This document shows positions 18,001 through 21,000 of a stretch of 64,000 bases of DNA, piece by piece; positions within the stretch are counted from its first letter, which is position 1; the number at the start of each line of letters is the position of its first letter. The DNA comes from a virus (lineage: Duplodnaviria; Heunggongvirae; Uroviricota; Caudoviricetes). The stretch is from IMG/VR virus record IMGVR_UViG_2721755646_000010, one strand, 5' to 3'. The position numbers are program-made.

Positions 18001-21000
18001 TGTCAGCAGACCCCGATCAGTGTAGTCAGCGTCCAGGTATGCCTCGAAAAAAGCAGTTATCAGTCCCAGGTCTGAATTACCGGGATTAGGGAAAACTTTG
18101 TCAGTGTCGCGTACCAGTTTGTGAAGGTCGCGAATCTCCAGCGGGTCGAGCAGCTTTGTTTTGTGAGAAATGGCCAGGGCAGTAACAGCCGGCAGTTCTT
18201 CCGCCCGTGCTATATGTAATGCCTGAAGTTCTTCCCGTGCAACGTGCGTTACTGGTTTTTCGCTGCCGTGTTGCGCAAGCCAGCGAATGGGCAGCTCCTG
18301 ACCAGAAACCGGCAGGAGCATATTCTCCTCAATCTCCGTCATGTCTTCGCCGTTGACGTTGGTATTGTCAGTACTGGCTGGTTTCTCCTGCACGGAGGGA
18401 GAGGGCGCGATAAATACCATTGTAATGCCATCTTCCCCGCCTTTTTCGTATCGGTTGCAGAATTCGGTATCAAACACGCCTTCAGGTGGAAGGTCATTCA
18501 CAACGGGTAAATGGACGCGAACGGGTTTTTTAAAGTCGTCTTCATCATAATCGTTGTCATCCATTGCGGTAATGCAGCGGGAGATGGCAACAGATAATTT
18601 TTTTGCTGTAGTCCAGTAAAAACCACCTTTAATTCCCAGACGTTTTCTGACTTTGTCATTTTTTGCTTCGCAATATAGCGCAAATTCTTCTTTATCAGTG
18701 CTCATTGATAAACCTCATTACAGATTTAAGGGTGAACAAATCCCTGCCATTGCTGGCATTTTTAATCCGTTGGTATGGTGTTAATATGGCTGGAGGGTTA
18801 TCCAGCCGGTGTTTCGTTATTCAGGTACAGCGATACTTTTTTTACCGGGAGGCATTCACCAGAAATTTTTTGCTCGTCTCTTGCCTGGAGGCAGGATTCT
18901 TTACTGGCATAAATTCCGGTAATCACATTCTGTGATTCACCCGTTATAAGAAAAACCGTCATCATCAGTGCAAATGCTGAAGTCATTGACGTTCTCCGAA
19001 AATACCAAGTTCAAGAAGAGCAATTCGGGAAAGTATGGAATTATCATTGAGCAGATAAGGCTCATATTTCCTCATGTTAATGGCATCTTCAGTAAACTCC
19101 CGGTTACTGAGCAGAACACCAATATCAAAACAACCTTCAGACGTATTAACGTTTGGTAATAACGTTTCCATTATCGCGTCCTCAACAATGAATTTTGTGA
19201 TGCAGTGCCTGGTGCCTCCAGGTGACGTTAACCAGTTAACAATTAACGCCGGATACAGAGAATCCACCCATAACACTGTTTTTGGTTTTAACTGTTCCGC
19301 GTGCGCTTAGCCGCATTCACCGCATCACAAAATTCACTTTAAAAAGGGCGGCAGAGCAGCCACGGAGTAAAACTGATACCGCCAAACGTCACCAGAAAAT
19401 TGATAACAGAGGGCGTTGCAGCGGGGTTGTCACTTAAGCGTATGGTCAACCTGACAACCCGGTGTCCTCAATGGGGAAGGAATAACCCCGCCATACTTAC
19501 CGCCGCGCCATTTCGCGGAGTGCCACAACCGGAAGCGCACGTTCGAAGAAATCTAACGACAAGCCTTCTAAGGGAAAGAGCTTCGCCGTACGCTTTCGCG
19601 TTATGCACTGACTTTTCAGGGAAATATCCTTTCAGTAAACTGTCAGTACCGGATTCTTATCCGTGTCCGGCGCACGACCACACGTGACAGCGTGTTGGTC
19701 TCCATTTTTAACCCAGAACCTCAATGGAGGATAAAATGCCAAACAAAAAAAGAAATCCGCTTATTGAAAAACAGATTGAATGCCTGGTAAATCAACTCAG
19801 GCAATCAGGGTTATTAAAAACTCATTCAGAGTTGAGGCTCACAGAATCAGCATTCGACGATAAATTAAATAATGTCCTTTATAATGGCATTATTGATTTT
19901 AATCGTTCTGTTGGTCGCCGCGGCCCTGCTGGTGTTTCCTTATAATTACCAGTCAATCCAGAGTGGACCGTGTTCAGCGTAAATATAACTGTACACATCC
20001 AGATTATATTTGTGGTCTGTTAAGAACAGGCCGCAAATACATGCCGAAGCTTCCAGTGCAGCGGCTCTGTTACTGAATAACCATGTAGCAACATTCCAGC
20101 GTTTTTCTGCATCCCAGTCTTTCTCAAGGCCTGATACCATGAAGAAACCGTTAGTGTTGCCATCAAATAATTCTGTTTCCAAATTTTTAAGCAATGCCTG
20201 ATGGACTCTTGCCAGGTATTCCGCCGGAATTTCGCCACGAATTCTGATGAGATTGTCATAAACAAACATGTTCCCCGCATATGGCGATTTTTCTTTCTTG
20301 TTTTTTAAACCAGCATCATGAGCAAACTGATCAATTTCTTCTTCCGTTGGTTTCGTATTGATGTTTTGCGCTGTCGTTTCTGCAATTTTATTTGCCACAC
20401 TCTCTGAGTCGTGTTTATTTATAGACGCACAGAAATACAATCCGGTAAACGCATCGCGCACATTACGAGCCATATTATCAGTGTCTTTTTTCGTTACCGA
20501 TTCCAATTCAAGTTCGTTCAGACGATGACGAAGTGTGTGTGCTGCAATCTCCTGGATTGAAGGAGGTAAATCTTTAAATTCCATCGTCAACCTCATCAGT
20601 CAGTGTTTCTGGCTAACCAGCGACGCGCGCCAGCTTCAGTTTTAAACGTTTTGCTTTTGGTATACGTCATCGCGGTGAACGTACCGTCCTGGTTGGGGAA
20701 CACGCCACATACCAGAGATTCGTTGTTGCCAAGATTGAGCGTATCCATGTTGACCTCATTTCCCCTTAACGCCGGGGTAGCGGAACAAAAACCTGCTGCA
20801 TAGTTATTAAAGTTGAACCCTGCCGTCATGTTCTTACGCCTCGGGCTGGCTACTTAACCCCTGACCACTGCCTGGTAACTCGAAGTATTGCCCTGCATTC
20901 TGTGGGGCGGGGTGAGGGAATGAATGAAGTTTAGAAAAACGAACATTTAAGGTCAATGTTTTTTTATCAAAACATTTTAAGCAGGCAGCTGTTACGCCAT

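Follow-up and report, generated by a model that had tools for sequence, protein, structure and literature searches.

A convergent pair of small accessory genes in a polymorphic slot of a dicBF-type early-left operon

Accessory genes beside lambdoid repressors

Lambdoid phages and prophages keep accessory genes beside the repressor, as in lambda (rexAB and sieB), Rac (sieB) and P22 (sieB and esc). Immunity-proximal morons of this kind are expressed in the lysogen, from promoters of their own. In Rac, sieB is read against the early-left operon, and both SieB and RexB are membrane proteins. The dicBF operon of the Qin prophage of Escherichia coli K-12 (ydfA-ydfB-ydfC-dicF-dicB-ydfD) likewise lies under a divergent repressor (PMC5069750). 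Here, we describe a locus with both features in a 64,000-nucleotide stretch of the Caudoviricetes virus record IMGVR_UViG_2721755646_000010; this whole stretch is called the window, and its positions are used unless another locus is named. Between its repressor gene and dicF, the locus carries a minus-strand gene for a 212-residue protein and, facing it tail to tail, a plus-strand gene for a 69-residue protein. Both are accessory genes under purifying selection, and the convergent pair recurs in two types of prophage. We tentatively propose, at a probability of about 0.4, that the C-terminal domain of the 212-residue protein (the C-domain) is an early-lytic effector and that the 69-residue unit is its prophage-expressed convergent antagonist or regulator.

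The window and K-12 Qin have the same operon backbone in the same order, and in both the operon lies under a divergent repressor. When K-12 Qin is aligned to the window, two flanks are kept, namely 20605-20786 (ydfA, 88% identical) and 19067-19676 (the dicF region, 93%); the spacer before dicF, DicF and DicB are approximately 93% identical in DNA. Between these conserved flanks, window 19677-20604 takes the place of ydfB-ydfC, and it is this replacement that makes the 212- and 69-residue genes cargo and leaves ydfA outside it. The two loci also differ in the repressor, which is of the S24 type in the window and is DicA in K-12 Qin, and in the leader of the 69-residue gene, of which only the first hairpin is kept in K-12 Qin. 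The surrounding segment (approximately 17-24 kb of the window) is the left arm of a lambdoid prophage, and the genomes of E. coli O157:H7 and O121 contain loci that match it at 100% identity.

The preliminary description of this region had listed three open reading frames (ORFs) as unrecognised cargo. All three are present in the sequence and are annotated by RefSeq in the 100% identical O157:H7 locus. The 212- and 69-residue genes are indeed accessory cargo replacing ydfB-ydfC, and the third, a small minus-strand ORF, belongs to the backbone. Residues 29-75 of this 77-residue ORF (20596-20829) match PF07151 (DUF1391/YdfA) with 102.1 bits against a cut-off of 27.3. The YdfA product has 51 residues in K-12, and RefSeq gives a DUF1391 protein of 50 residues. 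Because of this Pfam span and these product lengths, we take the 77-residue ORF as an over-extension and place the gene, with 50 codons, at 20596-20748 on the minus strand. The match identifies it as a ydfA-like gene of a recognised family and part of the conserved dicBF-type backbone.

A convergent pair of protein-coding genes

The larger cargo gene occupies 19946-20584 on the minus strand. It had been described as encoding 216 residues; all homologues begin at MEFKDLP, several of them without the upstream ATG, so the translation start is most likely the second ATG of that ORF, at 20584, which gives 212 residues. The gap between the ydfA stop codon and this start is 11 nucleotides. The two minus-strand genes, earlier called translationally coupled, are thus closely packed, with no ATGA overlap at the conserved start. 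The smaller gene lies at 19736-19945 on the plus strand, and its stop codon abuts that of the 212-residue gene (19945/19946). The ATG at 19724, previously taken as its start, is part of the Shine-Dalgarno sequence ATGGAGG.

To analyze the cargo genes, we used the 80 IMG/VR loci that carry the 212-residue gene, and the 69-residue gene was compared with six diverged alleles. The ratio of nonsynonymous to synonymous substitution rates (dN/dS) is 0.19-0.27 in the 69-residue frame. Of the five other frames, the two on the same strand and two on the opposite strand give at least 0.9; the remaining antisense frame, whose codons are in phase with those of the 69-residue frame, gives 0.34-0.60. In the 212-residue gene, the C-terminal third shows values of 0.14-0.18 and the N-terminal 65 codons show 0.3-0.7. 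Both cargo ORFs are therefore real protein-coding genes under purifying selection (dN/dS 0.14-0.27). Their products are oppositely charged, with calculated isoelectric points of 5.2 for the acidic 212-residue protein and 9.7 for the basic 69-residue protein. Of the 80 loci, 73 have the 69-residue ORF, which is intact in 64 of them; contig ends cut four of the seven that lack it. In eight of the 73, a run of seven A residues in codons 4-6 (19746-19752) is shortened to six, which cuts the ORF to 17 residues; the run may be a mutable tract, or the ORF may simply be decaying, and the window copy is intact. A very hydrophobic ORF of 36 residues (MSFIMALLILIVLLVAAALLVF...) at 19872-19982 on the plus strand overlaps the ends of both cargo genes and has the look of a type I toxin. 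We considered it as a toxin or a frameshift product and rejected it as probably spurious: dN/dS in the alternative frames, 0.99-2.49, gives no sign of purifying selection, and diverged loci either lack the ORF or conserve it to only 67-72%.

The 212-residue protein is built from two parts with different distributions. An N-terminal module (N-module) spans approximately residues 1-60 (20405-20584, minus strand). When 1.84 billion representative proteins were searched exhaustively with a profile, residues 1 to approximately 55 proved common to about 45 clusters, of 42-201 residues, whose C-termini are unrelated. PHROGs 1363, 9419, 6937 and 33007 also match the protein over residues 5 to approximately 55-79 only. 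For example, the 116-residue protein of locus L191 (112 residues from the conserved MEF start) is identical to the window N-module in residues 1-49 and continues into an unrelated C-terminus. The C-domain, approximately residues 96-212 plus the stop codon (19946-20299, minus strand), is rare and was seen only in Escherichia and Salmonella. Beyond its own representative and fragments, the same search found it in clusters P0177 and P0189 only, and a scan of one genome per species with C-domain patterns gave zero matches. All 50,697 deposited phage genomes lack the C-domain and any full-length homologue; among them, Stx2a-type phages carry the N-module only, within their early-left accessory genes.

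The C-domain and the 69-residue gene occur together at nearly equal counts. Among 5,426 complete E. coli genomes, 596 carry the 69-residue gene, at 743 places, and 599 carry the C-domain, at 750. The cassette is thus carried by about one in nine complete E. coli genomes, in up to four copies per genome, and its carriers include the Shiga-toxin lineages O157:H7, O121, O111 and O145. These counts, together with those from IMG/VR, indicate that the C-domain and the 69-residue gene are inherited as one cassette.

The only relatives of the C-domain outside this group are distant ones, in Salmonella proteins of 206-286 residues that are 33-38% identical and have a different N-terminal domain; one type contains an inserted HTH_3 domain. 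The genes for these proteins lie directly after cox, in prophages with int, the C repressor and Cox (a P2-type switch), at a site which we take to differ from the described P2 hotspots. In eight of the eight Salmonella loci examined, the C-domain gene is followed by a tail-to-tail ORF of 64-69 residues that overlaps it by 11-53 nucleotides. The product of this ORF is 44-55% identical to the 69-residue protein of the window, with shared stretches KQIECIAEQL..SGLLK, SAFKKKL and GRRxPAGxxL. The persistence of the same convergent pair in two prophage architectures, at 33-55% identity, speaks more strongly than any other observation for a joint function of the two genes.

Neither cargo protein belongs to a described family in the searches that we made. 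No Pfam (Pfam-A), NCBIfam or PADLOC family was found for either, and hence there is no SieB or Rex match either, if Pfam models them. With PADLOC-DB v2.0 at E values up to 0.1, neither protein gave a match, and the only match was a noise-level one of YdfA to AbiEi (E = 0.047). A sequence search of the PDB returned no match for the 69-residue protein and, for the 212-residue family, three above-threshold matches, of which the best (a nucleoid occlusion protein, E = 0.055) and the others are not significant. Homology of the 212-residue protein to YdfB or YdfC was also considered and rejected, because tblastn matched YdfA only. We found no enzyme motifs in the cargo proteins and no literature on either family. 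Membrane segments were absent as well, since the highest 19-residue Kyte-Doolittle means are 1.16 for the 212-residue protein and 0.22 for the 69-residue protein, below the usual 1.6. The earlier statement that no family is recognised holds for both cargo proteins in Pfam, NCBIfam, PADLOC and the PDB; PHROG families exist for both (phrog_2151 for the 212-residue and phrog_4274 for the 69-residue protein, each with function unknown), and the small ORF is YdfA. AlphaFold2 models of both proteins are of low confidence. The 212-residue protein, modelled with 19 homologues, reaches a predicted local distance difference test score (pLDDT) of 63.7, with a helical N-module of approximately 60 residues and a low-confidence alpha/beta C-domain. 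The 69-residue protein, with nine homologues, reaches a pLDDT of 58.8 and shows two helices.

These results bear on whether the 69-residue protein alone, or both proteins, could form an anti-phage or superinfection-exclusion system in the lysogen, as had been suggested from the position of the genes. In its place beside the immunity region and its variable cargo flanked by conserved sequence, the locus is reminiscent of known defence hotspots in prophages (Rousset 2022, PMC9122126), and expression of DicB, from the same operon, gives protection against phage (PMC6832061). Among prophage-rich lineages of Shiga toxin-producing E. coli (STEC), the cassette is common as well, and the 69-residue gene appears to own a promoter. 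Against a role in defence stand the lack of any PADLOC match beyond noise, of membrane segments and of enzyme motifs, and the absence of the C-domain from the deposited phage genomes. Expression is a further point. The sole promoter-like site that a consensus scan finds on the minus strand in 19200-21100, and hence the only one upstream of the 212-residue gene, is a pL-like sigma-70 site (TTGACC-17-TAAACT, nine of 12 consensus matches) at 20928-20956, just below the repressor gene, where it would head the early-left operon. Inside this repressor-controlled operon and with no promoter-like site of its own, the 212-residue gene should be silent in the lysogen, unlike what an exclusion gene needs. 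A defence function stays a guess from position, not supported by these results, and we regard it as improbable.

Shared leader, polymorphic slot and structured RNA

The 69-residue gene is preceded by a promoter-like element and a conserved leader of approximately 90 nucleotides (19648-19735, plus strand). As read from the sequence, the putative promoter (19613-19641, plus strand) consists of a -35 hexamer TTTTCA at 19613-19618, a 17-nucleotide spacer and a -10 hexamer TAAACT at 19636-19641. A -10-like hexamer lies approximately 7-10 nucleotides before the first hairpin in all leader variants, and in the variant of locus L182 the scan calls a promoter (TTGAGA-17-GATAAT) at the same place and a terminator follows the ORF. 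Three hairpins make up the leader. Hairpin 1 (19649-19670) pairs CCGGA at 19649-53 with TCCGG at 19666-70. Hairpin 2 (19677-19699) is formed by at least three unrelated stems in different loci, CCACACG/CGTGTTGG, CTCCAC/GTGGAG and CCCGAC/GTCGGG. In the predicted third hairpin, an anti-Shine-Dalgarno sequence CTCCAT at 19700-05 pairs with ATGGAG of the Shine-Dalgarno sequence at 19724-29. RNAalifold recovers hairpin 1 and the Shine-Dalgarno hairpin from 24 leaders, and the fifth pair of the latter is compensatory, being A-U in 18 sequences and U-A in six. The ribosome-binding site that had been described as strong is strong, and it lies inside this predicted, conserved hairpin. The leader is also conserved before the start codon in the Salmonella loci. 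We infer that the 69-residue gene is an independent transcription unit, probably active in the prophage state, and that its translation would be gated by the leader; in this arrangement it looks like an independently transcribed moron. Pairing of the leader with DicF or its Salmonella counterpart was tried and rejected, since the duplex energy is no better than that of shuffled sequences.

The same leader serves many other genes. We scanned IMG/VR with a 15-mer from the leader and filtered the matches for context, and found the leader and its promoter-like element, conserved up to the ATG, before at least 13 unrelated ORF families of 57-101 residues. Most of these alternative ORFs stand tail to tail with an N-module protein that bears a different C-terminal extension. 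Many of the short extensions run into the small ORF, over as many as 131 nucleotides, and may be simple read-through. Window 19736-20584 is thus one form of an accessory slot that is polymorphic across the dicBF-type early-left operons of lambdoid prophages. The alternative families have function unknown in PHROGs or no PHROG match. One 94-residue ORF, at locus L245, gives a borderline match to the antitoxin family GhoS in Pfam (21.2 bits against a cut-off of 21), and the 101-residue slot ORF of L288 and L289 falls in the same PHROG (phrog_8894) and is GhoS-like. This match hints that slot proteins can be antidote-like.

In the window, the scan finds no terminator after the 69-residue ORF; its transcript should therefore run antisense into the 212-residue gene and ydfA. 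This raises the possibility of a regulatory device in which the convergent transcript, through antisense pairing and collision of polymerases, damps leaky pL transcription towards the toxic dicF and dicB, with the small ORFs as interchangeable passengers. The missing terminator would suit such a device, as would the conservation of promoter and leader, which is far better than that of the ORFs behind them, and the retention of part of the leader in K-12 Qin without any ORF. However, the 69-residue ORF is under clear protein-level purifying selection and its protein is conserved in Salmonella, and the antisense RNA does not cover dicF or dicB, because both lie upstream of this promoter and on the other strand. 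We consider this device quite unlikely as the explanation of the locus, and prefer to see the transcript as one arm of the proposed antagonism between the two genes. In K-12 Qin (locus L002, approximately 4043-4110), the promoter-like element and hairpin 1 stand right after ydfC, with neither an N-module gene nor a small ORF. This piece resembles what a deletion in the slot would leave behind, and antisense transcription from it might still enter ydfC.

The DNA between the slot and dicF holds a second conserved RNA, in the sense of the operon (19398-19620, minus strand). The block 19398-19676 is 90% identical in K-12 Qin, where it is the ydfC-dicF spacer, and 76-81% identical in nucleotides in the Salmonella loci, far better conserved than the genes beside it. 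For the structured RNA, 46 base pairs are supported by 33 distinct sequences, in which 98.4% of the cells are paired, compared with 33-48% when the partners are slid; double changes occur at five of the 46 pairs. In our tally of the pair table, approximately 179 cells are G-U and approximately seven are A-C, and this large excess of G-U places the RNA on the minus strand. Its K-12 counterpart is part of the long untranslated region in which dicF lies (PMC5069750). Among Rfam 15 matches in 19300-20000 (E up to 10), DicF is the only one besides a chance-level match to anti-hemB (19 against 49.5 bits), and neither the leader nor the structured RNA matches a described family. A 20-mer from the structured RNA, searched in one genome per species, occurs in Escherichia and Shigella genomes and in six contigs from metagenome-assembled genomes, three of which align to the element. 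The RNA may have a role in DicF processing or in terminator read-through, and it is also present in the Salmonella P2-type-switch prophages without dicF. In several of those loci (L157 6150-6190, L159 6395-6425 and the equivalents in L160 and L162), a short GC hairpin with a T-run follows it at the position of DicF, and this may be a different 3'-end small RNA. At L164 (5145-5160), TGCTCTTTAACA stands at that site instead of the GC hairpin; we take it to resemble the rrn boxA sequence.

The remaining features frame this locus. On the minus strand, the order is the S24 repressor, the pL-like promoter, the ydfA-like gene, the 212-residue gene, DicF, DicB, a DUF1482/YdfD-like gene, a truncated recE and an integrase remnant. 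The repressor (21041-21679, minus strand) is a full 212-residue protein of the CI/LexA type with Pfam Peptidase_S24 and a helix-turn-helix domain. DicF (19346-19397, minus strand; Rfam RF00039, 75 bits) coincides with a terminator-like site in the scan. The genes thus lie between repressor and dicF, as first described. The window and the otherwise identical O157:H7 TR01 locus were compared up to window position 21100, and the repressor equivalent in TR01 (locus L001, 7742-8080) is annotated as only a 112-residue LexA-family fragment. Elsewhere in the window, a sok antisense RNA lies at 26607-26781, and a Hok/Gef gene is annotated near the equivalent position in TR01. A sar RNA at 5971-6037 is typical of P22-type immI regions, so there is probably a second prophage in the window. 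An STnc100 RNA lies at 32097-32269, and genes for tRNA-Met(CAT) and tRNA-Arg(TCT), of a kind seen in lambdoid late regions, lie at 31075-31327.

Proposed roles and comparison with known systems

In the scheme that we favour, the C-domain and the 69-residue gene would be a functional pair. The 212-residue protein, transcribed only from the repressor-controlled pL-like promoter, would be made early after induction or infection and would act in the early-lytic phase on a host or phage target. The 69-residue unit would most likely be active in the repressed prophage, as morons are, with leader hairpins that bury its Shine-Dalgarno sequence, and would restrain or tune its partner in two ways. First, its transcript, antisense to the 212-residue gene and ydfA, would collide with transcription from pL. 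Second, the basic 69-residue protein would probably also bind the acidic C-domain. The small protein would thus serve as a prophage-state antidote or regulator.

Several observations weigh against this scheme, and most of them suit its main rival, plain linkage, by which unrelated accessory genes would share a mosaic slot and the N-module and the leader/RNA block would act as anchors for homologous recombination. Adjacent genes co-occur through linkage alone, and the slot is highly mosaic, with 13 or more families of small ORFs and numerous C-terminal extensions, of which the short overlapping ones may be read-through. The pairing of C-terminus and small ORF is tight for the window variant and loose in other variants; the same 137-residue protein type, for example, is found with two different small ORFs. 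Even the C-domain stands opposite a different convergent ORF, in place of the 69-residue gene, at three loci (L067, L077 and L081). Moreover, six of the eight loci with a truncated 69-residue ORF keep the 212-residue gene intact, which argues that the 69-residue protein is not an indispensable antidote. The promoter hexamers of the 69-residue gene in the window are weak, with eight of 12 consensus matches, below the scan threshold. The AlphaFold2 models of both cargo proteins are too poor to interpret, and a fold search with them yielded nothing specific. On the other side, the tail-to-tail pair persists at 33-55% identity in another prophage type and beside another N-terminal domain, which is hard to explain by recent linkage alone, and both partners are under purifying selection. 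We therefore hold linkage to be the leading alternative, possible but on balance rather unlikely. The ORF that replaces the 69-residue gene at the three loci (3799-4314 on the minus strand of L067) encodes a coiled-coil protein of approximately 171 residues with a CxxC...CxxC zinc-ribbon motif and no Pfam match.

The same truncations bear on the idea of a classical type II toxin-antitoxin module. Such a module would fit a pair of small genes carried by a mobile element, with a basic small partner and, elsewhere, a GhoS-like ORF in the same slot. However, the genes are convergent and not co-transcribed, and no toxin or antitoxin family was matched in Pfam, NCBIfam or PADLOC. The putative antitoxin is lost in 11% of loci (8/73), six of them with an intact partner, and the putative toxin lies in a repressed operon. 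A module of this class is very improbable, and the early effector with a separately expressed, convergent antagonist or regulator remains our preferred reading.

A wider form of this proposal would be that enterobacterial temperate phages hold an intracellular polymorphic effector-antidote locus, in which swappable C-domains sit on a common N-module and each has a convergent small partner expressed from a shared, gated leader. We give this extension little credence at present. If true, phages would have a new class of conflict system, which would differ in its construction from known toxin-antitoxin, polymorphic-toxin and defence-hotspot systems and would serve superinfection exclusion, abortive infection or competition between phages. 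For the locus itself, the pair, the exchange slot and the structured RNA turn two hypothetical proteins into a defined and cheap experimental system, one that occurs widely among pathogenic E. coli and can readily be tested. The questions that it raises are what benefit the slot proteins bring to the lysogen, by what means the shared leader gates translation and whether these proteins target their partner in the early operon. Should the answer be positive, lambdoid phages would gain a new type of hotspot for prophage accessory or defence functions, with a bearing on prophage stability and on phage-phage competition in STEC.

Finally, we compared the locus with the known systems that it resembles. 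GhoS is a type V antitoxin endoribonuclease; the 69-residue protein of the window has no similarity to it, and only the L245 variant ORF matches it at the borderline. The window shares the place of its accessory genes beside the repressor with the rex and sieB loci of lambda, Rac and P22. Its cargo matches no Pfam family and, unlike SieB and RexB, has no membrane segments; unlike the rex and sieB morons, its 69-residue unit has a leader that also serves at least 13 other ORFs, and it is linked to one domain of the operon-sense protein. The arrangement is like that of CdiA-CT/CdiI and Rhs-CT/RhsI, in which a conserved N-terminal part carries a swappable C-domain and a small variable gene beyond it travels with that domain. 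The window differs from these in that its protein has no secretion or delivery domain (212 residues, no Pfam domain) and an N-module of only about 60 residues, the small gene is convergent with its own conserved promoter-like element and leader, and the pairing is not strict in all variants. As in the hotspots of temperate phages (Rousset 2022, PMC9122126), variable cargo lies between conserved flanks, and the Salmonella relatives lie in P2-type int-C-Cox prophages; unlike in those hotspots, the cargo is tiny (ORFs of 57-101 residues) and matches no known defence system. In summary, prophage hotspots with accessory cargo beside the immunity region are a known kind of feature, and what appears to be new in this variant is the convergent pair across two prophage types, the single leader before many small ORFs and the linked domain swap in the early protein that faces them.

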